A DNA stretch of 53,485 bases from a virus (taxonomy: Duplodnaviria > Caudoviricetes), in IMG/VR virus record IMGVR_UViG_3300025805_000002, positions 1 to 53,485 of that record; one strand, given 5' to 3'. How positions within the stretch are numbered: position 1 is the stretch's first letter; every line of letters starts with the position of its first letter. Position numbers and translations under genes: made by a program. The notes beneath the pieces were generated by a model. The model had not been told where the DNA came from, did no database searches, and was given only the letters and a program-made list of their open reading frames with translations. Positions 2,436-49,060 of this stretch are shown one piece after another.

Positions 2436-2744
2436 ATGGACCCGAACGTCAGCCGTGTCGAAGTCGAACTGTCCCTGGTCTGGGCGTCCGAGAACCCCGA
2501 CCTGTTCCTGGATGCCGTCGCCAAGTTCCGCGACACCCACCAGGGCTGGGGCGTGAAGATCGACACCTTCAGGGCAGGGTTTATCACCCTGGCCGCCTCC
2601 AGGTTCCCCGTCGAAGAGCCGGAGTCCGAGGATCGCAAGAAACTGAAGCGGATCGCTTGGCTTCTCGGTGCGATCATACAGGACGCCGACACCGGCATGG
2701 AGCCCGACGAGATCATCCGAGAGGCGCACAAGCTCTGCCTCTGA
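2436..2744 (+). CDS. Hypothetical protein
   Basis: 102-aa ORF with GC3-rich codon usage. Confidence 0.65.
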   Translation: MDPNVSRVEVELSLVWASENPDLFLDAVAKFRDTHQGWGVKIDTFRAGFITLAASRFPVEEPESEDRKKLKRIAWLLGAIIQDADTGMEPDEIIREAHKLCL

Positions 2745-2863
2745 CGAAACCGTTTCGGCCTGGGGAGCCTCGCCCTCGTCTCCAGGCTGATCGAGGGGTG
2801 GGGGTCCCTCCCTCCCGCCTCCACCCCTCACCTGATACACTGATCGCAGAAAAGGAGAACACT

Positions 2864-3151
2864 ATGCGAATCCCCCAAACCATCTCGGGCCTGCTGGTCG
2901 ACATGATCGGCGACGCCCTGGGCTTCCGGCCTGCTGGCACCAGCGAAGGCAAGGGCGTCGAGCGCGCCCGCCAGCGCCTCGCTGAGAAGCGCAAGCGCAA
3001 CCAGGAAGTCTATGGGCACCTGCCGCCTGCCGAGCCGTCCCGGCAGGTTCTCCGGGCCGCCGTGCGCCGTGCGTTCAAGATCGAGCGGCACGGGCGCAAG
3101 ATGGCCGCGCTGAAGGGCAAGGTTCCCGGCGGGGCTGCGGTGGTCCAGTGA
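2864..3151 (+). CDS. Basic hypothetical protein
   Basis: SD AAGGAG, then ATG (MRIPQTISG). Confidence 0.7.
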   Translation: MRIPQTISGLLVDMIGDALGFRPAGTSEGKGVERARQRLAEKRKRNQEVYGHLPPAEPSRQVLRAAVRRAFKIERHGRKMAALKGKVPGGAAVVQ

Positions 3152-3297
3152 GATCGCTGCGCGAATATCTCGTGATCTCGGTGATGGCGTTGTCCCTTTT
3201 CGTCCTCACCTATGGCTTTATCAAGTCATGGGCAGAAGCGGGGCCTGGGTGCCCCGCAGACCCCACATGGCTCGGCTGGTGCGAGGACATCCAATGA
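3148..3297 (+). CDS. Small membrane protein (49 aa)
   Basis: GTGA and ATGA overlaps with both neighbours; hydrophobic stretch YLVISVMALSLFVLTYGFI. Confidence 0.55.
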   Translation: MRSLREYLVISVMALSLFVLTYGFIKSWAEAGPGCPADPTWLGWCEDIQ

Positions 3298-3443
3298 CGA
3301 CGAGACCACAAGGAACCTACGACAACCCGCTCCCGACGCTGGAGTGGCCCGACGCGAATCCCCCGGCAAGCTGGTGGGGTCGCAACTCGAACGGCGAGAT
3401 CACCAAGGTCTACCGCTCCTATGCGGATTACTGCAATGACTGA
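3294..3443 (+). CDS. Hypothetical protein
   Basis: SD GAGG and ATGA overlap; MTTRPQG...YCND. Confidence 0.55.
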   Translation: MTTRPQGTYDNPLPTLEWPDANPPASWWGRNSNGEITKVYRSYADYCND

Positions 3444-40608: not shown

Positions 40609-41348
40609 TACAAGACATCCTCCAGATCGTCATCGTCGCCCAAAACGATTTCGGTCGAGGTCTCGTCCTCGTCCACATCGAAGAGCGAAGGCTTGGTGCT
40701 GCGCTCGCGCGCGGCATCGACCAACCCCTGGTAAATCTCGTCCTGGAGGGTGTCCCCGAGGCGGACCAAGAGGTCTCGCTGGGCGTCGGTCAACCCTTCC
40801 TGCCGCTCCACCGTGTCGGGCCAAAGCTGGACCGTCGACTTGATGATGGCGAAGGTGGACGACAGCACGGCCATCACGTCCTGTGTATGCCAAAGATCGC
40901 CAGCCAGGGCCTCCCACTTCTGGCGCTTCAGGCGGGCATCCCAGATTTCCTTCTGAAGCGATGCCGGGAGATCGGTGGCCTTCAGGTCCCGCAGATATGT
41001 GCCGATGTCCATTTTGGGCGTGACCAGATACTGCGCCGCGACCTTGATGTCATAGCGGAAGCTCTTGCCGTGCTGGGACATGGGGGGGCAGTCGACCAGC
41101 TTGTTCCGCACCCATTCGGTCGTCTTGCCGAAGACCGCCGCGAGCCAGTTGACCGTGACCCCGTTCTTGATGCTGACGGAACTCAGGTTCCCGTCCCTGG
41201 AGGTCGACGCCTTCAGGTCCGCCTGTTGCTTGATCGCCAGGGCCGCCCGTTTCTGAGCGCGAGACGGGGCAGGCTGAAGGCCACCGTGGGGCTTCGGCTT
41301 GGCCGCGCCGCCCAGGATCGCTTCGATGTCATCGTCATAGGCCGTCAC
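40608..41348 (-). CDS. terS: Terminase small subunit (DUF1441/Nu1-like)
   Basis: HTH VNWLAAVFGKT, K..WDA.LKRQKW...AGDLW, PDTVERQEGLT; upstream of terL. Confidence 0.8.
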   Translation of the reverse strand: MTAYDDDIEAILGGAAKPKPHGGLQPAPSRAQKRAALAIKQQADLKASTSRDGNLSSVSIKNGVTVNWLAAVFGKTTEWVRNKLVDCPPMSQHGKSFRYDIKVAAQYLVTPKMDIGTYLRDLKATDLPASLQKEIWDARLKRQKWEALAGDLWHTQDVMAVLSSTFAIIKSTVQLWPDTVERQEGLTDAQRDLLVRLGDTLQDEIYQGLVDAARERSTKPSLFDVDEDETSTEIVLGDDDDLEDVL

Positions 41349-42865
41349 GCCGCCATCCTCCGAATGTCTTCCATGCGGACGCGAACGGTGTCGGTGATCC
41401 TGTCTTGGGTGATCGCTTTCTGCGCGAGGTTTTCCGCCACTCTGGCGTCATTGGTGCCACGCGCAAGGATGCGATAGAGCCTGACGAACGATCCCTTCTG
41501 CCCCCTCCGATGAAGACGCTTATTAAACTGCTGGTATAGTTCAAGCGACCAGTTGAGTCCATACCAGACGGCGATGTTGCCCCCGTGTTGGAAGTTCAGA
41601 CCGTGACCTGCCGAGGCCGGATGAAGGATCATCGCCTTCAGCTTTCCGGTGTTCCAGTCGCGCAGATCGTTCGGCGTCTCGCCGTATGCGCGGACCCAGG
41701 GGAACCGCTTCTTGATCGCGTGGATGTCGAACTTGAAGCTGTAGGCGATCAGGACCGGACGCCCCGCTGCCTCGGAGAAAATCGACTCCAGTTCGTCCAG
41801 CTTGCGGTTGTGGATGTGTTTCGCCACCGGCTTCCGGTTCGGGTTCCACTGGCCGTCCTCTTCGTCCTCGGGCGCGTAGATCGAGCCGTTCGCGAATTGC
41901 AGGAGCTTGTTGCAGAGCACCGCGTTCGTCGGGGCCTCCACGTCGTATTCTTCCAGCGCCAGGGTGCGCTCGAACTCCCGATACATCTGCATGTGCCGAG
42001 GCGTCAGATTGACCCAGCGATCCACCACCTGGAGCGGCGGCAGCTTCAGATAGTCCTCTTCCTTCAGGCAGAAGAACACGTCCTTCAGCCGCCCCATGAC
42101 CTCGGCCTCGGAGTGATCGAAGGGCTCGTGGGTCTTGGAATAGGCGTTGTAGCGGAACCAGCGTTCCAGGAACTTCGTCCTGCTGGTCCCGAGCCGCTGG
42201 CCTTTGTCGAGGATGTAGAGCGGACCCCAGAGGTCGATGATGCCGTTCGGATTCGGGGTGCCCGCGAGTTCCCAGACCCACTTGAACTGGAGCCTGATCT
42301 TCCCGACGTAGCCGAACTCGGACAACCGCCGCTGGCTGACAGACCCATCCTTGCGGACGTTCGGCGTCGTGCGCTTGTTGCCAGCCTTCAGCCGCGATGC
42401 CTCGTCATAGATCATCACGTCGAACTGGCGGAACCAGCGGATACCCTTCTGTTCGTAGAGCCAGCGAAGGTTCTCCCGATTGATGATGACGACATCTGCC
42501 TCTTCCTGAAGCGCGGCCAGACGGGTTTCCTCGTCACCCACGACGCAGGCATAGTGAAGCTCTCGGGCGAAGTCCCAGCACATGATCTCGTCAGGCCAAG
42601 TGTCCGCCGCGACGTTCTTGGGAGCGATCACCAGGGCCTTTCGAGCCTTTCCGGTGGACCAGAGCTTCCAGAAGGCATGAAGTGCGGTCGCCGTCTTGCC
42701 AGAACCCATGAAGGCCCCGAGCAAAACGATTTCGTTCTTCTGAAGGAGGTCGGACATCCACCACTGGTATTCCTCGAAGTCCTTCTCCGTCAGCGTCACA
42801 GGGAAGCCGTTCAGGACCTCTTCAGCGCCAGCTTGCAGGTAGAGCCGCGTGCCCATCTTGCTCAT
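41345..42865 (-). CDS. SNF2-like helicase
   Basis: MGSGKT, YDEAS, AGTPNPN, HPASAGHGLNFQ, RLHRRGQ. Confidence 0.9.
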   Translation of the reverse strand: MSKMGTRLYLQAGAEEVLNGFPVTLTEKDFEEYQWWMSDLLQKNEIVLLGAFMGSGKTATALHAFWKLWSTGKARKALVIAPKNVAADTWPDEIMCWDFARELHYACVVGDEETRLAALQEEADVVIINRENLRWLYEQKGIRWFRQFDVMIYDEASRLKAGNKRTTPNVRKDGSVSQRRLSEFGYVGKIRLQFKWVWELAGTPNPNGIIDLWGPLYILDKGQRLGTSRTKFLERWFRYNAYSKTHEPFDHSEAEVMGRLKDVFFCLKEEDYLKLPPLQVVDRWVNLTPRHMQMYREFERTLALEEYDVEAPTNAVLCNKLLQFANGSIYAPEDEEDGQWNPNRKPVAKHIHNRKLDELESIFSEAAGRPVLIAYSFKFDIHAIKKRFPWVRAYGETPNDLRDWNTGKLKAMILHPASAGHGLNFQHGGNIAVWYGLNWSLELYQQFNKRLHRRGQKGSFVRLYRILARGTNDARVAENLAQKAITQDRITDTVRVRMEDIRRMAA

Positions 42866-43228
42866 GCTGCGATCCCCAGGATTCGGAGGGCGTCGGCCAC
42901 GTTGTCGCAGACATGGATGTGCGGATACTTCTTCTTCAACCGCTTTACCTCGCGCGCCTGCTGCGATCCCCAGGATTCGGAGGGCGTCGGCCACGTTGTC
43001 GCAGACATGGATGTCCGAATACTTCTTCTTCAACCGCTTGACCTCGCGCGCCTGCTGCCCCTCGGGCTCCTTGCCGGGGGCCTTGAACTCGATCCAGATG
43101 CACTTGCCATGGCCGAAGAACACGCGATCCATAGCCCCGCGCCGTCCGATCCACTGGACCTTTCGGACCTCGTATCCAGCCATCTCGGCCTTGGCGACAA
43201 CCTCCAGTTCGATCTGTTCTTCGATCAT
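42862..43228 (-). CDS. VRR-NUC nuclease, 3' end duplicated and read into the helicase in this sequence
   Basis: GAMDRVF...IEFKAPGK...Q. Confidence 0.8.
42865..43058. repeat. 94-bp tandem duplication with 3 mismatches
   Basis: Copies start at 42865 and 42959; junction microhomology TGCTGC. Confidence 0.9.
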
Positions 43229-43458: not shown

Positions 43459-46365
43459 TCAATCCTTCACGAACCACTTGGAGATGTGACCGGCCACCTT
43501 CAGCGGCATGCCCCCCATCCAGCGGTCGCGGTCTGTCATGCACTGGATCAGCGTGGTCAGGGCGTCGTCGGCGTTCTCTTCCCGGACGAGCCCCACGATC
43601 TGGTCGTGGATGTGCATGACGATAGGAATCCCTGCCTTGGCCGCTTTCATCATCCCGGAAGCCAGTAGGTCCCTAGCGATGGCTTGGTCCGCGTTCTCGG
43701 TCAGCTTGCCGGGGTGGGTGCTGATCCGATCCCACTGGTATTTGTCGTTCTGGCCCTCATAGGTGAGGGACATCTTGAAATCGCCCCACGGTGCCAGGAC
43801 CTCTTCCAGCTTCGGGCGCGGGTAGTGCAGCGAACGCCCGCTGGGCAGGTTCATCCGCAGGAACGGGCCTTTGCGGTCGAAGCTGACATGCCCGCAGGCC
43901 GTCTCCTTCTTCGTCCGCATGGTCCTGAAGGCGGCCCGCTGGAGGTCATACCAGAACTGGACAGCTTCCTTGAAGGTCTCCCTCCAGACCCGAACCGAAC
44001 GCTCGGCCTCTTCCGGGGTGAGCTTGACCCCCATGTTCCAGGCATAGCCCAGGAGGCCGGTTGCCTCGATCTCGCCGGTCTGCCGGTTCTCGTATTGCTT
44101 GCCAGCGCCGAGCATGTATCCGCAGTTATGGGCCACGACGCACCCACTTTCCGTCAGGACCGCGAACCGGGCATAATCCCCGGTATTCAGGATGTCCCAA
44201 GTGTCTGCTGTTTGAGTTCTGTTCTGATCGAGTTGCGAGCCGAAGGTTCCCTGGCTCGTAATGCCCGTCGTTGTCGATTCGGTCGATTTCGAGGGTTCCA
44301 TCAGCCCCGAGAGTTCCCGCGACATAGGACACCCACTCGTCAGCGGAACCGAATAGGCAACATATTCCGCGCTCCCCGTAATAACGGTAGGCACGGTTCT
44401 CCGGGTTTTCGCAACGCGCTCGCGCAGCATAGAAACGATTTGCGAGTAAGTCGTAAAGGACTGCGCCGACTCGCTTTCCAACATCGGAGCGACGGTCAGC
44501 CGAAGCGCAGCCGGTGCAACGTGTGGATAATCCGCGCACGAGGTTTGATCTTGGTATCTTTCGTTCTCGACCACATTTGCATCGGCATAGAAAGACTTTT
44601 CCCGTGCTGCGAGAGGACCCCGCTTCTCCAAGAACACGCCATTCCCCATAACGAGAGCCGACTTGAACATCTGTTGCAGGGACGCCGATTGCCACTCATG
44701 CCATCCTTCTTCAGTCAAAAACCGATGGTCAGAAGTAGCATGTATCCCAGACCCACACAAGACTTCTTGGTGGCCTTTGAAAACCACGCCCTCGTGACGA
44801 ACCCACTTCTCGCCATCGTGAAGCCAATCATCACTATTGACCTCCACGATGGCCTTCCAGCCTTTGTCCGTCAGAACCGGAGTGTCGCCCTTCAAGCACC
44901 CCAATACACCCGGCTTCGCGATGGTCCGCTTGCCTTTGTTGCCGCCCTTGAACTCGGCCCAAAGCTCTTCGTAGGTCTTGCCGTAGAGGTAGGTGGCGAA
45001 GTCGATGTAGGGGTCCAGTCCCTTCTTGAAGACGCGCAGAATCTTCGGGTCATTCGCCAGCCAGCCAAGGACGACGTTCTCGATGGCCGCAAGGTCGGCG
45101 TCGATGAACACATAGCCCGGAGGGGCTTGCACCACCGTCCGAACAGCGCCGGAGATCGCGTCCATCGGGCGCGAGAACAGCATTTCGACGCCTTCCGAGG
45201 TCAGCGTCTGAAGAAGCATCGCGGCTTCGATCTGGGTGCCGCCGGTCACGAACTTGTAGCCTTGCGGCGTCTCACCCCAGGTCAGACCCTCCAAGTCCTT
45301 GGTCGGCTTCGCAAGGTTCTGGGGCTGGAAGACTCGGCCCGCCCAGCGCCACGTCCGACCCGCTCCGCTGAACTGGAAACAGTTTCGGAGGTTGCCGTCT
45401 TCGTCGACGTGCGAGGCCACGGCGTCGAACTTCTTGGTCGAGGTCCGGGAGACCTCCGACCGAAGCTCCAGCACCCGGCGGCATTCCTCGCTCTGGTTCG
45501 GGCGCTGACCGCGCTCGACCATCTGGTCATACTTCTCAATCGCCCGCCGGATGTGGCCCGCCTTCAGGTCGTTGAAGGGGTATCCTTCGTTCTGGAGCCA
45601 GCCGAGAAGCTGGGCCTGGGCGTTCGGGTTTTCGAGTTGGGTGATCTCTTCCAGTTCCTCGATCCGGTCAGCGACCAGTTCGTCTCGAACCTCGATCACG
45701 TTGCGGCACATCTCCATGTTCACGGGGATGCCGCGATCATTGATCTCCTGGTCCAGCGCCCAAAGCTCCCACTCGTGCTCCGGGAGATCGTATTTCCGCA
45801 GGATGCGGTAAATCTTGCGCTCGGACACCGTGTCCATGCGGTTATACTGAAGGAACTCCAACCACTTATCGTATTTCTCGTGGAAGTGGACTCGGCGCTC
45901 CGGGCGCGTCTTGGTCGCGGGCCTGGGCTTGCAGAACCAGTTGATAAGCCGGTGCCCGTCCTCCTTCAGATACTTCTCGTCGAGCCGGAGGACCTGACCG
46001 CACTTCGCCAGCTTCCCCGGCAGAGACAGGGAAAGGGCCATGACCATGGGGTCTCGCCATGCCGAGTGCGGCGTGTCGATCCCGAGGGAGTGCTTCCAGA
46101 TGTTCCACTCGAAGTTCTTGTTCCAGGCGAACTTCTTGACCCTATCGTCGAGCATCGCGTCCTCGACCTCGGCGGGCATGGGTTGCCCTTCCGCCGGAAC
46201 CCATTGCTTCACGGCCTCGTCGTCAAAGGCATAGGCGAGCATGAGGGGTTCGGTCGACGGGTCGCGCGCATAACGAGACGCCCCGACCTTCGTTACGTCC
46301 GCGAGCGAAAAAGTTTCAAAATCGTGGTGGAATCGTTTCGGTCGGGGTTTGAAGATCGCCGTCAT
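43459..46365 (-). CDS. Family A DNA polymerase with intein
   Basis: DFET exonuclease I, YNRMD, GRTWRWAG, DADLAAIE, R..AK..VLG|CGY motif B, HIHDQIV. Confidence 0.92.
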   Translation of the reverse strand: MTAIFKPRPKRFHHDFETFSLADVTKVGASRYARDPSTEPLMLAYAFDDEAVKQWVPAEGQPMPAEVEDAMLDDRVKKFAWNKNFEWNIWKHSLGIDTPHSAWRDPMVMALSLSLPGKLAKCGQVLRLDEKYLKEDGHRLINWFCKPRPATKTRPERRVHFHEKYDKWLEFLQYNRMDTVSERKIYRILRKYDLPEHEWELWALDQEINDRGIPVNMEMCRNVIEVRDELVADRIEELEEITQLENPNAQAQLLGWLQNEGYPFNDLKAGHIRRAIEKYDQMVERGQRPNQSEECRRVLELRSEVSRTSTKKFDAVASHVDEDGNLRNCFQFSGAGRTWRWAGRVFQPQNLAKPTKDLEGLTWGETPQGYKFVTGGTQIEAAMLLQTLTSEGVEMLFSRPMDAISGAVRTVVQAPPGYVFIDADLAAIENVVLGWLANDPKILRVFKKGLDPYIDFATYLYGKTYEELWAEFKGGNKGKRTIAKPGVLGCLKGDTPVLTDKGWKAIVEVNSDDWLHDGEKWVRHEGVVFKGHQEVLCGSGIHATSDHRFLTEEGWHEWQSASLQQMFKSALVMGNGVFLEKRGPLAAREKSFYADANVVENERYQDQTSCADYPHVAPAALRLTVAPMLESESAQSFTTYSQIVSMLRERVAKTRRTVPTVITGSAEYVAYSVPLTSGCPMSRELSGLMEPSKSTESTTTGITSQGTFGSQLDQNRTQTADTWDILNTGDYARFAVLTESGCVVAHNCGYMLGAGKQYENRQTGEIEATGLLGYAWNMGVKLTPEEAERSVRVWRETFKEAVQFWYDLQRAAFRTMRTKKETACGHVSFDRKGPFLRMNLPSGRSLHYPRPKLEEVLAPWGDFKMSLTYEGQNDKYQWDRISTHPGKLTENADQAIARDLLASGMMKAAKAGIPIVMHIHDQIVGLVREENADDALTTLIQCMTDRDRWMGGMPLKVAGHISKWFVKD
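44125..44898 (-). mobile_element. Intein (258 aa) in polymerase motif B
   Basis: Starts CLKGDTPVLTDKGW; block B HATSDHRFLT; ends VVAHN followed by Cys+1. Confidence 0.9.
44126..44695 (-). CDS. HNH endonuclease nested out of frame inside the polymerase intein
   Basis: FLCRCKCG, STRCTGC, RCENP...YRYYGERGI, LEIDRIDNDGHYEPGNLRLATRSEQNSN; SD AAGGA 8 nt before GTG. Confidence 0.85.
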   Translation of the reverse strand: MAIGVPATDVQVGSRYGEWRVLGEAGSSRSTGKVFLCRCKCGRERKIPRSNLVRGLSTRCTGCASADRRSDVGKRVGAVLYDLLANRFYAARARCENPENRAYRYYGERGICCLFGSADEWVSYVAGTLGADGTLEIDRIDNDGHYEPGNLRLATRSEQNSNSRHLGHPEYRGLCPVRGPDGKWVRRGP

Positions 46366-46366
46366 C

Positions 46367-47083
46367 CTACCCCCACGTCTCTGCCATCGCCGAGGCAATG
46401 CCCTCGTAAGTCGCCGCTCGAAGTGCCCAGCGATCTTCGGAAGGTCCAAGATTGTTCTGTCCGCTAGGAGTCTGGTTGCCCCACACAGTCTTCAGCCTCG
46501 TGCCGCACACGGGACAATCCGATTCGTCTTCGTCGTATACGAACTTGACCTTGCAGGCAGGGCACCCATGCTTCGGGGAGACGCGCAACGTCGGCTTCAA
46601 CGGCTCCAGCCCTCCGCGAAGCCAAAGGCACGTCGCCTTCCTCGCGTCATGCCCATACTGATTCGGTTGCACGATCTGCGTCGCCTTCAATCCGAGACGA
46701 GACGGAATGACCCCCACAGGGTTTTCGATACAAACTTTCGGTATAGGAGCTTCCCAGAGCTTGCGGAAAAACTCCACGGCCTCGTCTCGCGCCCGTCGCC
46801 TGACAGAGCCGAAGAGGGCGTCAGAGCCCCTGGCTTTCGCTTTCTCTTCGGCTTCGTCGGAATAACACCACTCCGCTGCGATGGTCAAATAGGTGCAATC
46901 TGGATGAAAGATTCCAAGGTCCCACGGCCCGTGATCGGCGATGGCCTTGAACACATCCATGTGCAAATGATGCGGACTCCCGTCCGCTGCGGGGAGAATG
47001 TCGTTCGACCAAGCGTCGTGACCCTTCTCACGAAACTTCCGTCTTACGGCCCCGGTGAACTCACATCCAATAAGGACTCTCAT
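46367..47083 (-). CDS. Putative DNA cytosine methyltransferase (phage type) with Zn-ribbon insert
   Basis: MRVLIGCE, HPDCTYL, IENPVG, QPNQYGH..RKATCLWL, R..TYEGIA.AMA.TWG. Confidence 0.7.
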   Translation of the reverse strand: MRVLIGCEFTGAVRRKFREKGHDAWSNDILPAADGSPHHLHMDVFKAIADHGPWDLGIFHPDCTYLTIAAEWCYSDEAEEKAKARGSDALFGSVRRRARDEAVEFFRKLWEAPIPKVCIENPVGVIPSRLGLKATQIVQPNQYGHDARKATCLWLRGGLEPLKPTLRVSPKHGCPACKVKFVYDEDESDCPVCGTRLKTVWGNQTPSGQNNLGPSEDRWALRAATYEGIASAMAETWG

Positions 47084-47140: not shown

Positions 47141-47806
47141 TTAGAGAACGTCGTCTTCGTCGTCGTCGTCCACGTCGTCGTCGTCCAGATCGTCGTCGTC
47201 GTCCGTGAGATCGTCGAAGTCTTCGTCGACATCGACGCCCGGAGCACCGAACGCTTCACCGTCCTTGACGAACTGCACGGCCTCCAGCGACGCATAGACC
47301 GCATGGGGGACCGGGTTGTCGTTCTTCACCCCGGCAGGCTGATACCAGAGGGTGATGATCGCGTTCACATAGCACCCGCTGTAGACCACGCCGTCAGCTT
47401 CCTTCAACACGCGCTTGTCGCGCCCGATGATCTTCGGCTGTTTCGCGTTGTTCGCCGAGACATACCACTGGCCTTCGTAGCCGTCGTAGTTTTCCTCGTC
47501 GCCGTCCTTGACCGCATAGGCCGAGGACTTGATCTTCAGCGTCTTCGCCTTTTCCTCACCGAGTTTCTTGGCGATGGCCGCGATCTTGGCTTTCTTCAGA
47601 CCGACCATGATCGGCACCCGCTTGCCATCAACGATGGCAGTCAGTTCGGAGCCTTCCTTGGGGATCAAAAAGTTGGCCGAGAACTTCGGAGGGGACTCCG
47701 TCCCGTCCTGCCGCTTGATCACCTTGGGACGCCAGATGTCGGCAAAGGAGAGGCGAACGCCTTCCAGCTTGATCCGGCCAGCGACCTTCTTTTTCTCTTC
47801 AGTCAT
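47141..47806 (-). CDS. DUF2815 ssDNA-binding/annealing protein
   Basis: VRLSFADIW, KDGD, YSGCYVNA, LEAVQFVKDGEAFG, long acidic tail. Confidence 0.88.
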   Translation of the reverse strand: MTEEKKKVAGRIKLEGVRLSFADIWRPKVIKRQDGTESPPKFSANFLIPKEGSELTAIVDGKRVPIMVGLKKAKIAAIAKKLGEEKAKTLKIKSSAYAVKDGDEENYDGYEGQWYVSANNAKQPKIIGRDKRVLKEADGVVYSGCYVNAIITLWYQPAGVKNDNPVPHAVYASLEAVQFVKDGEAFGAPGVDVDEDFDDLTDDDDDLDDDDVDDDDEDDVL

Positions 47807-47818
47807 GGGATTTCCTTT

Positions 47819-49060
47819 TCATAGGGTTTCATCGGTTGCATCAAGGTCGTCAAACATATCGACCGCTGATTCTATCCGGGGCCGGTTGTCTTCTTCCGGC
47901 ACCAGGATAGGTTGCGGAGTCCCATGGTCGACGAATCGGTCCAAGAGCTTCGCATACCGGGCTTTGCCCAGCTTCTTCTCTGCCTGTGCGGGCGAGAGAA
48001 GTTCGGGAGGATGGTAAGCCTCGTCGCCGAGTTCCTTCCTCAAAACGGTTTCGGCCTTGTGGGTCGCGTTCTCGTGATACTTGCGGGCGGGGCGCTTGCC
48101 CTCCACCAGCTTCATCCCCGGAACCGGGTTCCCCACCTGGGCGTCGTGGTAGGCGGCCTTGCGCAGAGCCTCCATCCACTGGTTCAAGATCGGCTTCAGC
48201 CGCAACAGGATCGTGCGGCGCTCGGGCGTGACCTCTTCCGGCGCTTCGAGTTCGGGCAGGAACCCGGTCTCGTCCGCCATGTCGAGATCGTCGAACTCCA
48301 GCCCGATCATCTCCATGTTCCATTCGGCGAAGGTGCCGCAGTAATCCTTGGCGCGGCACCACCGGCATTGCTTCACACCGGCCTTGCGAGGCGGGTTCTT
48401 GGCCGTCGTCAGCACGGCCTGCCGCTTGGCGTGTTGGCCGAACTCCAGGACGCGCTGCATCGTGGTCTCCCACAGGCCGCCGCCGCCCGGAACCCTGGGC
48501 TGTTCGATGATGATCGTCACCTTGACCCCGGACGGGTCCCAATCGAACAGCTTGCCGAAGATCGTCTGCCACGCACCGAGGCAGTAGCCTTGGGCTTGCT
48601 CGTTCTCCTGGGGGTAAACCGGCTCCTTGCCGTATTTCCAGTCGAACACGATCACCAGCTTCTTGGCGACGTTGACCAGGATCACGTCGGCGGTGCCGAA
48701 CTGACCCGGCAGGGTCCACTTCGAGATGTCCACGCGGGTCTCGACGTAGAGTTCCCAGCCGGGTTCAGCGGCCACGTTCCGAACGAAGTCCAGGCCATCG
48801 CGCACCGCAGCGCACATCTCTTCGTTGTATTCGACGAAGAAGCCATCGACCTCCAGGCCCCTCCCGCCGCCGACATAATCCTCGGGCTCGAAGCCCATCT
48901 CCAGACAGTCGGCCACGAGTTCGTGGAGCACAGTCCCCTCGGCGGCCTCGAATCGGGCCTTGTCCGGTATCCCGGCCTGCGCCTGAACGCTGCCGGGGCA
49001 CCGAATCCAGCGGCTCCAAGACGAAGGGCCGAGAGAACTATGTTCGACGGGAGTGCCCAT
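47819..49060 (-). CDS. DUF2800 PD-(D/E)xK/Cas4-like nuclease
   Basis: HSSLGPSS..RW..CPGS, EGTVLH, FGTADV, DWKYG, CRWCRAK..C. Confidence 0.88.
   Translation of the reverse strand: MGTPVEHSSLGPSSWSRWIRCPGSVQAQAGIPDKARFEAAEGTVLHELVADCLEMGFEPEDYVGGGRGLEVDGFFVEYNEEMCAAVRDGLDFVRNVAAEPGWELYVETRVDISKWTLPGQFGTADVILVNVAKKLVIVFDWKYGKEPVYPQENEQAQGYCLGAWQTIFGKLFDWDPSGVKVTIIIEQPRVPGGGGLWETTMQRVLEFGQHAKRQAVLTTAKNPPRKAGVKQCRWCRAKDYCGTFAEWNMEMIGLEFDDLDMADETGFLPELEAPEEVTPERRTILLRLKPILNQWMEALRKAAYHDAQVGNPVPGMKLVEGKRPARKYHENATHKAETVLRKELGDEAYHPPELLSPAQAEKKLGKARYAKLLDRFVDHGTPQPILVPEEDNRPRIESAVDMFDDLDATDETL

Follow-up and report, generated by a model that had tools for sequence, protein, structure and literature searches.

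The DNA polymerase gene of the virus in IMG/VR record IMGVR_UViG_3300025805_000002 (53,485 bases, analysed as a whole and referred to below as the window) probably carries a mobile intein, in the motif-B region of a phage family-A enzyme, whose homing nuclease is an overlapping gene and not an in-frame domain; we put the probability of this reading at about three in four. The intein (44125..44898, minus strand; 774 bases, 258 amino acids) interrupts a polymerase precursor of 996 residues, intein included (43459..46449, minus), and a 189 amino acid open reading frame (ORF) with a GTG start lies inside it in another frame (44126..44695, minus). A sequence-only reading of this DNA had proposed a dual-coding selfish element in which splicing and homing are translated independently. 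The dual-coding proposal fits all of the comparative evidence and is supported by it: relatives share the offset, selection switches frame, disorder in one frame is matched by a fold in the other, and an intein-less allele exists. Independent translation is suggested by the ORF layout and the stops upstream of the nested gene.

The intein

Against Pfam, the polymerase scores with DNA_pol_A (E 4.4e-08, 32.9 bits), just below the cutoff of 34.3, and by TBLASTN it matches phage DNA polymerase or DNA polymerase I genes in 1713 records. Among isolated phages, Ruegeria phages come closest (about 48% identity) and lack the intein; their matches span 72-74% of the polymerase in two pieces, and the part left uncovered is the 258-residue insertion at 44898-44125. 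The N-extein (44899..46449, minus) ends R-T-I-A-K-P-G-V-L-G, within an R..(A/G)K...LG..YG motif which we take to be motif B, or the O-helix, of family-A polymerases. The C-extein (43459..44124, minus) begins C-G-Y-M-L-G.

The insertion has the anatomy of a class-1 type intein, with Cys1, block B T55-S-D-H58, Asp235 and His257-Asn258, and is followed by the Cys+1 codon at 44124-44122. The sequence-only reading had likewise described an intact 258-residue intein from Cys1, the TxxH block B, His-Asn and Cys+1, and the re-read sequence agrees. C1, T55, H58, D235, H257 and N258 are invariant in 60 of the 60 aligned inteins and Cys+1 is present in all listed flanks; one relative of class B (the +1 class described below) has a terminal Ser-Asn in place of His-Asn. 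[quoted passage not shown] Foldseek searches with the confident parts returned seven chains at E<=0.001, all of them mini-inteins with a probability of 1.00; the best match was 6frg (5.6e-04), and Ssp DnaB, DnaX and gp41-1 also ranked near the top. The Hint side of the profile and fold comparison proposed earlier for the two frames is thus borne out by the modelled ends and their mini-intein matches.

Sequence models responded less strongly. The intein frame matched NF038136 (E 2.3e-06) and fell below the cutoff of TIGR01445 (18.4 bits against 24.5, E 0.0032); no Pfam intein model matched at E<=0.1, and a PDB sequence search gave a weak match to a DnaB intein (E 0.33). These sub-cutoff scores are a failure of model sensitivity in a divergent family, the diagnostic residues and the fold both being present. 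Splicing would be expected from the open frame which the intein keeps in an essential host gene at 58 of the 59 loci of its frame class (the +2 class, below). A group I intron was considered as another reading of the insertion and set aside, both intein ends and the open frame being conserved.

The nested open reading frame

The distance from the polymerase start to the nested start (46449-44695 = 1754 = 2 mod 3) places the nested ORF in the +2 (= -1) frame, the position claimed for it earlier. An AAGGA at 44708-44704 stands 8 nucleotides (nt) ahead of the GTG (44695-44693), and a TGA (44698-44696) abuts that GTG; the sequence-only reading had reported the same arrangement, and its coordinates agree. 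At the other end, the TAA stop (44128-44126) is embedded in the CAT-AAC codons of the His-Asn terminus of the intein (44125..44130, minus): its T closes the His codon and its AA opens the Asn codon, so that the DNA indeed reads caTAAc. The same overlap of TAA with His-Asn occurs in 16 of the 59 distinct +2-class inteins. Both frames are open across 570 nt, as had been stated, while the third frame has five stops in the 174-codon core. When the codons of the nested gene were shuffled synonymously, the intein frame stayed open in 0.05% of 2000 trials (window and L004, a second IMG/VR contig), with a mean of 3.7 stops in the overlapping frame for the window.

The sequence-only reading had named one artefact that would undo its proposal, namely two compensating indel errors that place an HNH nuclease in frame with the intein. 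None was found. L004 is 99.5-99.65% identical to the window without gaps, and its intein is identical. The stretch 43900-45100 was present in 23 of 24 listed public runs, which come from 19 studies and of which 12 are flagged as possible sources; 18 of the runs carry at least half of the sampled words. A contig spanning this stretch was found in all four runs compared (four studies; three flagged as possible sources, X13 unflagged), with 0 indels and 0-2 substitutions. Assembly error is ruled out by these four contigs together with L004.

Conservation of the off-frame layout

A relative is encoded by 348 IMG/VR stretches, the best 80 of which were fetched. The frame census was made on stop-to-stop translations of L001-L083 and the window (84 sources) with profiles of both frames, and it recovered 82 inteins with both ends recognised, 71 of them distinct in DNA; six further N-terminal matches had no recognisable C-terminus (contig ends or a second partial match) and were not counted. 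The nuclease lies in the +2 frame with the intein frame open in 58 of the 71 distinct inteins, and in the +2 frame with the intein frame broken in one (L064, seven stops). Nine carry a distant nuclease relative in the +1 frame, two are 135 amino acid mini-inteins without a nuclease, and one (L056) is broken, with its halves in different frames. A nuclease in frame with the intein was found in 0 of 71. The search for relatives suggested earlier therefore yielded the same offset in 59 distinct inteins and none in frame, and L064 was the sole +2 locus with a broken intein frame. The off-frame layout is a family trait, neither an accident nor an assembly error.

Deposited genomes show the same. 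With the nested protein as TBLASTN query, homologs came up within polymerase inteins already annotated in EBPR siphovirus 2 and in Jerseyvirus phages of Salmonella (Ent1, Ent2, Ent3, VT223 and others), and the offset from the polymerase coding sequence (CDS) was +2 in all three records examined (Ent1, VT223, EBPR siphovirus 2). The Ent1 record annotates this intein as "encoding splicing domains" only. The intein frame as query matched 192 phage records, of which 143 belong to Salmonella phages; in 146 of the 192 the match spans 80% or more of the query. Pseudomonas phage MR14 has the +2 offset, and APSE-1, Caulobacter RLK and Streptococcus Javan113 have the +1 offset. Inteins of the +2 class occupy two points of the R..GK...LG..YG motif that are separated by four residues, and those of the +1 class a downstream site, ..EN|C.Q..ARD.

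Several individual loci deserve mention. In L012 (2501-4669) and L073 (2501-4507) each polymerase gene holds two inteins, one of the +2 class in the motif-B region and one of the +1 class about 120 codons downstream, and each intein has its own overlapping nuclease ORF. L079 (2501-3349) has a +2-class intein whose flanks (..TLARGL|C...HN|CWDSIDW..) are unlike the polymerase motif, which may represent a jump to another host gene. In L064 (2501-3412) the nuclease ORF (2635-3408) is intact and the seven intein-frame stops lie between conserved splicing blocks; this could be a split intein, that is, a fractured polymerase with a free-standing nuclease gene between its halves, or a dead allele. L056 (2501-3591), whose N- and C-terminal intein blocks are in different frames with no nuclease homolog between them, is possibly a split or decayed variant. 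The mini-inteins of L081 (1186-1590) and L083 (2501-2905) belong to the same family, stand at the motif-B site and contain no nuclease ORF; they represent either the harbour in its ancestral, empty state or products of deletion. Inteins of 364 residues in L032 (2501-3592) and L035 (2388-3479) match the profile of the N-terminal part of the nuclease twice with both frames open, which points to an internal duplication within the nested gene. The helicase gene of Ent1 (L001, 4607-5495) is annotated with a second intein containing an in-frame LAGLIDADG endonuclease, so that a canonical and an off-frame intein occur in one genome.

Selection on the two frames

Nucleotide diversity by codon position was calculated on a codon alignment of 58 distinct +2-class elements. 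Over the N-terminal splicing region, diversity is highest at third positions of the intein frame (0.57-0.59 versus 0.30-0.44 at first and second positions). Columns 72-87 are transitional, and the window GTG, at column 77, falls where the switch occurs. Over columns 91-305, diversity is highest at third positions of the nuclease frame, which are the second positions of the intein frame (0.59-0.70), and in the last block, that of the C-terminal splicing region, the peak returns to intein third positions. The +1 class (class B) shows the same third-position signature.

The ratio of nonsynonymous to synonymous substitution rates (dN/dS) was estimated by the Nei-Gojobori method for pairs 70-97% identical in DNA, and its values describe the family, not the window copy. 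In the core it was 0.117 in the nuclease (+2) frame (44 pairs), 1.50 in the intein frame (50 pairs) and 2.20 in the third frame (48 pairs); in the N-terminal overlap it was 2.0 in the +2 frame, 0.167 in the intein frame and 1.40 in the third frame. This is the per-frame comparison that the sequence-only reading had called for, and it came out in favour of the nested gene. The intein frame contains no stop in 58 of 58 loci, which had been preselected for an open intein frame, the one excluded being L064; none of the 58 has an open third frame, which contains 4-28 stops (mean 13.4). Synonymous shuffling of the nuclease codons left the intein frame open with a median probability of 0.0025 (mean 0.020). 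In the core, the nuclease frame is under purifying selection and the intein frame is kept free of stops.

The linker of the intein frame (residues 93-222, about 130 amino acids; 44233..44622, minus) combines low pLDDT with the core dN/dS of 1.50. From these sequences it appears to be under no amino acid constraint, the sole demand on it being freedom from stops. The polymerase frame is thus predicted to encode a mini-intein with a long unstructured tether, and the same DNA a folded protein off-frame, because the matches, invariant residues and folds of both frames agree with such a division.

Initiation of the nested gene

The putative initiation region (44693..44713, minus) contains, in order, AAGGA, ATG, GCA, TGA and GTG. 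The ATG (44704-44702) stands three codons upstream of the GTG, is formed by the block-B Gly-Trp codons and had been missed by the sequence-only reading; it is likely to be the start used by the family. In the window this ATG is followed by GCA and TGA, and the long ORF can therefore open from the GTG alone. The homolog P0001 (84% identical, no gaps, same tail) begins M-A-G-V, that is ATG..GGA..GTG, without the TGA of the window. Among the 58 distinct +2-class loci, 48 have ATG, GTG or TTG at intein nt +194 and/or +203, the former arising from the conserved block-B Gly-Trp codons (GGN-TGG); as evidence for a start this is weak, because three of the four Gly codons give a start before TGG by chance. 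The Shine-Dalgarno sequence in relatives is mostly GGA alone. Jerseyviruses have no start at +194 or +203; they have instead an ATG at +92 with GGAG 9 nt upstream, which adds about 50 residues that evolve as intein rather than as nuclease.

A scan of 43900-45300 for promoters and terminators gave 0 sites on both strands, with no sigma-70-like promoter, and hence no hint of a separate transcript. In RNA runs, at most 0.18 of the sampled words of 43900-45100 were present. Translation by internal initiation is the best inference for the nested gene, because of the ORF layout and the stops upstream.

It is conceivable that the nuclease is instead made as a fusion, either through a programmed -1 frameshift or because a domain that is truly in frame is masked by two compensating indel errors. 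Relative to the polymerase the nuclease frame is -1, and in several relatives the -1 frame is open far upstream, with ORF start offsets down to -205. The upstream part of that frame has, however, a dN/dS of 2.0. In the window, TGA stops at +188 and +200 stand just before the GTG and leave about 10 codons before a conserved G-x-R-Y-G, and no X-XXY-YYZ heptamer was seen there by eye; a programmed frameshift in the window was rejected on these grounds. With 0 indels in the four contigs and L004, the same offset in 59 distinct inteins and none of 71 in frame, a fusion product is highly improbable.

The nested protein

Compared with PHROGs, the nested protein matched phrog_374, 'HNH endonuclease', at E 2.1e-32, and eight further PHROGs. 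Searches of NCBIfam found nothing, and those of PDB sequences gave chance-level matches only. In a collection of 5.8 billion proteins there were 176 homologs at E<=1e-5, almost all without a name or a Pfam domain, and precomputed Pfam assignments were empty for nearly all of the 120 homologs listed. The exact nested protein was absent from this collection, where the best match was 84% identical. Gene callers evidently overlook ORFs inside the polymerase gene, and the nuclease family is evidently under-counted in protein databases.

An AlphaFold2 model of the nuclease, made with 52 aligned relatives, has a mean pLDDT of 82.3, falling to 60-65 in the tail (residues 160-189). The model places a small beta-barrel, bearing a CxC...CxxC zinc-type motif, at the N-terminus and a putative PacI-like or HNH-like beta-beta-alpha domain after it. 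C39, C41, C60 and C63 of the barrel are invariant in the 52 sequences, as are R87, R94, Y106, G107, R109 and G110. The core (residues 136-164; 44204..44290, minus) has a strand-loop-strand-helix order (DSSP: E136-139, E151-154, H156-161) and contains the invariant residues D138, R139, Y146, P148, N150, N162 and R164. The loop Asn (N150) and the helix Asn (N162) are placed as in HNH nucleases and His-Me fingers, and Y146 lies in the loop between the strands 136-139 and 151-154. Most relatives also have a C-terminal coiled-coil-like helix, with Pfam matches of the bZIP or INO80F type in at most 12 of 52. In the structure search VIA the best nuclease match was PacI, amid Tudor- and SH3-like matches to the N-terminal barrel; Hpy99I (Z 3.7) matched on that barrel alone.

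A number of results, beginning with the indistinct start signals of the relatives, weigh against a nested homing nuclease. Pfam gave no match to the nested protein at E<=0.1 and no HNH model, and HNH_3 was found in one of 52 relatives (E 0.024). Where the canonical catalytic His is expected, after Asp138, all 52 sequences have Arg139; the HNH_3 pattern was aligned by eye, and its catalytic His presumably corresponds to this residue. Foldseek returned nothing from the PDB for the nuclease model at E<=0.001, its top rows being kinases. The match to PacI (3m7k_A; Z 4.6, root-mean-square deviation 3.3, 78 residues aligned, residues 76-166) is weak, and a profile search of the PDB placed PacI at E 1.2, which is not significant. 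The window nuclease is without the C-terminal coiled-coil helix and has gaps at four positions that hardly vary in the relatives, and the purifying selection reported above is that of the family and not of this copy. The name 'HNH endonuclease' given by the sequence-only reading accordingly stands as far as phrog_374 is concerned and is loose otherwise, with no Pfam HNH match and with Arg for the catalytic His.

PacI itself is a His-Me finger without the His, a loop Tyr replacing it, and His-Me groups in which neither the His nor a Tyr in its place is present are regarded as inactive, according to the available text of Jablonska et al. (2017, PMC5714182). A PacI-like, Tyr-dependent mechanism is plausible here because of the invariant Tyr146 in the loop, and may serve as a lead. 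The passenger appears to be a hitherto undescribed family of His-less His-Me nucleases.

The same residues bear on whether the protein is kept for a job other than homing, such as DNA binding, regulation or inter-phage competition, the intein being a safe harbour for it. The catalytic His is absent in 52 of 52 sequences, a state that is judged inactive in the text cited above where Tyr is missing too, and free-standing homologs are common in phages (760 records). Tyr146, however, is invariant in the inter-strand loop where PacI has its substitute Tyr. The protein is, moreover, strictly confined to inteins at two conserved polymerase sites and, judged by its flanks, in at least one other gene (L079), and close relatives are polymorphic for the intein as homing predicts. 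We consider a non-homing role improbable.

Somewhat less improbable, though still unlikely, is that the nested gene of the window is a fresh relic, its start context and C-terminal helix lost, so that a mini-intein now carries a fossil ORF. Between ATG(+194) and GTG(+203) the window has TGA where relatives have GGA; the ORF is the shortest of the family (189 amino acids versus about 200-250) in an intein of 258 residues versus 277-299; there are gaps at four nearly invariant columns, and the tail (residues 160-189) is modelled at pLDDT 60-65. The window copy may indeed be weakened. On the other hand, it keeps 18 of the 18 invariant family residues and runs for 189 codons without a stop, to be compared with the shuffle mean of 3.7 stops in the overlapping frame. 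GTG at +203 also occurs in most relatives of the DGTW(M/V)AGV subgroup, and here it is preceded by AAGGA 8 nt upstream. P0001, 16% diverged, has the same short form without gaps, and the short form is therefore an evolving lineage and not a one-off.

Mobility

The IMG/VR sequence L085, which is 86% identical to the window in DNA and 91% in the N-extein protein, lacks exactly 44898-44125 (774 bases). Its junction reads ...PGVLG-CGYML..., the N- and C-exteins being fused directly. L086, which is 55% identical, is also without the intein. Such a polymorphism of occupied and empty sites is the pattern that would be expected of a homing element.

An overlapping homing gene would work as follows. 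Translation of the polymerase frame would give a precursor in which the two ends of the intein (about 1-90 and 225-258) fold as a Hint domain and join the polymerase parts by splicing, some 130 residues in the middle serving as a disordered tether. Reading of the +2 frame from an internal start, in the window the GTG at 44695 and in most relatives the ATG or GTG made by the block-B Gly-Trp codons, would give a 21-kDa nuclease composed of a zinc-type beta-barrel and a PacI-like His-Me finger. During co-infection this nuclease would cut or nick intein-less polymerase alleles at ...VLG|CGY..., and repair would then copy the intein and the nuclease gene together. Splicing, independent initiation, cleavage and homing are all conditional in this scheme.

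Relation to known systems

That off-frame intein endonucleases may have precedents had been foreseen in the sequence-only reading, and they are in print (Gosselin et al. 2025; Phillips et al. 2026); the present case is therefore not new in principle. Gosselin et al. (2025), in the text available, report actinophage inteins whose endonuclease is antisense and others whose Endo VII-like endonuclease lies on the same strand in frame 3, state that the latter had been unreported, and propose that inteins were invaded by free-standing endonuclease genes. Their elements resemble ours in having a same-strand, off-frame endonuclease ORF between the splicing blocks, a patchy distribution and an intein-frame middle without recognisable structure. 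They differ in the nuclease, which is Endo VII-like (matching 1E7D) and not of the PHROG-374 type with a PacI-like core, and in the host genes, which there encode terminase, capsid, thymidylate synthase and DNA polymerase III alpha of actinophages, whereas here the host is a family-A polymerase in phages of Proteobacteria and others.

A cyanobacterial dnaX intein with a LAGLIDADG endonuclease in a +2 ORF was described by Phillips, DeSimone and Gogarten (bioRxiv 10.64898/2026.09.14.751524), who, in the portion available, credit Gorbalenya (1998) with first proposing alternative-frame intein endonucleases. It shares with our family the +2 ORF, a low dN/dS in the endonuclease frame and a raised one in the intein frame, the absence of in-frame relatives and the coexistence of mini-intein alleles; it differs in the nuclease type and in its cellular host gene. 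In contrast to the dnaX intein, two independent offsets (+2 and +1) occur here at two sites of one phage gene. The ShiLan domain (Arsenault et al., Genes 2025, PMC11855218) is, in the text available, a hidden out-of-frame HNH gene in an insertion of a mycobacteriophage methylase without splicing domains. Like the window element, that insertion is open in the host frame, has a GTG start near its 5' end and has a TAA stop in its last four bases (TAAC), exactly as in the window. It is thought to stay in the protein, whereas the present family has invariant splicing residues and a predicted Hint fold. The reports of 2025 and 2026 by Gosselin, Arsenault, Phillips and their coauthors all come from one group.

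The CDS P46 of phage APSE-1 (AF157835; L088 2931-3353) likewise lies within the intein of a polymerase gene, P45, and is a member of the nuclease family described here (motif YGGRGI...LDRI.N..GY...NC.W). It differs in lying at the second polymerase site (..|CENICQAAARD) and in the +1 frame, and it has had no product name since 1999. A 2020 comparison of APSE phages mentions, in the text available, differential loss of the P45 intein and not P46. Canonical in-frame HNH inteins, such as those of gyrase B (group 22 / PF13392; PMC5714182, as far as available), also combine an intein with a His-Me homing nuclease, but there the nuclease is a domain of the intein with a catalytic His and here it is a separate, His-less gene. 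PacI (3LDY/3M7K) resembles the present family as a His-Me finger without His and with a loop Tyr, the family having an invariant D-R...Y...N...N; the similarity is weak (Z 4.6, E 1.2), and PacI is a homodimeric restriction enzyme and not an intein passenger.

The family-A polymerase/PHROG-374 case in Jerseyvirus, APSE and relatives was not found in a full-text search of the literature, outside of which lie supplementary tables and subscription papers, including the 1999 APSE-1 paper. The available text of PMC8425127, which deals with the intein in Jerseyvirus, does not mention the nested gene. The principle was published in 2025-2026, and what is added here is a new, large and taxonomically wide case with a different, uncharacterised nuclease.

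We regard as tentative, at a little under even odds, the wider proposal that a very large family of family-A polymerase inteins has off-frame coding as its obligate and ancestral design, and that this is more than a curiosity. The design may then have had two or more origins, with +2 at motif B and +1 at the downstream site; the block-B Gly-Trp codons may provide the start and the terminal His-Asn a backstop TAA; the passenger may be a His-less, Tyr-dependent PacI-like family that no curated domain model covers; and internal initiation under the ribosome traffic of the polymerase frame could possibly keep the nuclease dose low. If true, this would extend to the 348 IMG/VR relatives and to 146 deposited genomes with a full-length match, including those of Jerseyvirus and E. 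coli phages.

For annotation, the consequence of an overlapping homing gene is that more than 100 deposited phage genomes label the intein "splicing domains only", or the gene plainly as polymerase, and miss the nested gene. On the evidence of this family, overlapping, frame-shifted homing genes in inteins are common beyond actinophages and cyanobacteria. The family would also be a natural experiment suggesting that between its splicing blocks an intein needs an open frame and nothing more. Cultivable E. coli phages with the same element could show how an internal ORF is translated in a heavily translated gene and whether homing is tuned by it.

Genomic context

The window is a whole IMG/VR virus record with an estimated completeness of 85%. 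Its polymerase gene is part of a replication module on the minus strand which also includes genes for a DUF2800 protein (47819-49060), an Enc34-type single-stranded DNA-binding protein (47141-47806) and an SNF2-type helicase (41345-43228). Within the last ORF there is a 94-nt tandem duplication (42860-43047; two copies, 95% identical) that separates an N-terminal, nuclease-like segment from the SNF2 helicase part. Its unit length of 94 is not a multiple of 3. L004, the contig 99.5% identical to the window, has a single copy of the unit, and the duplication reflects either strain variation, with two genes fused or shifted, or an error of assembly.

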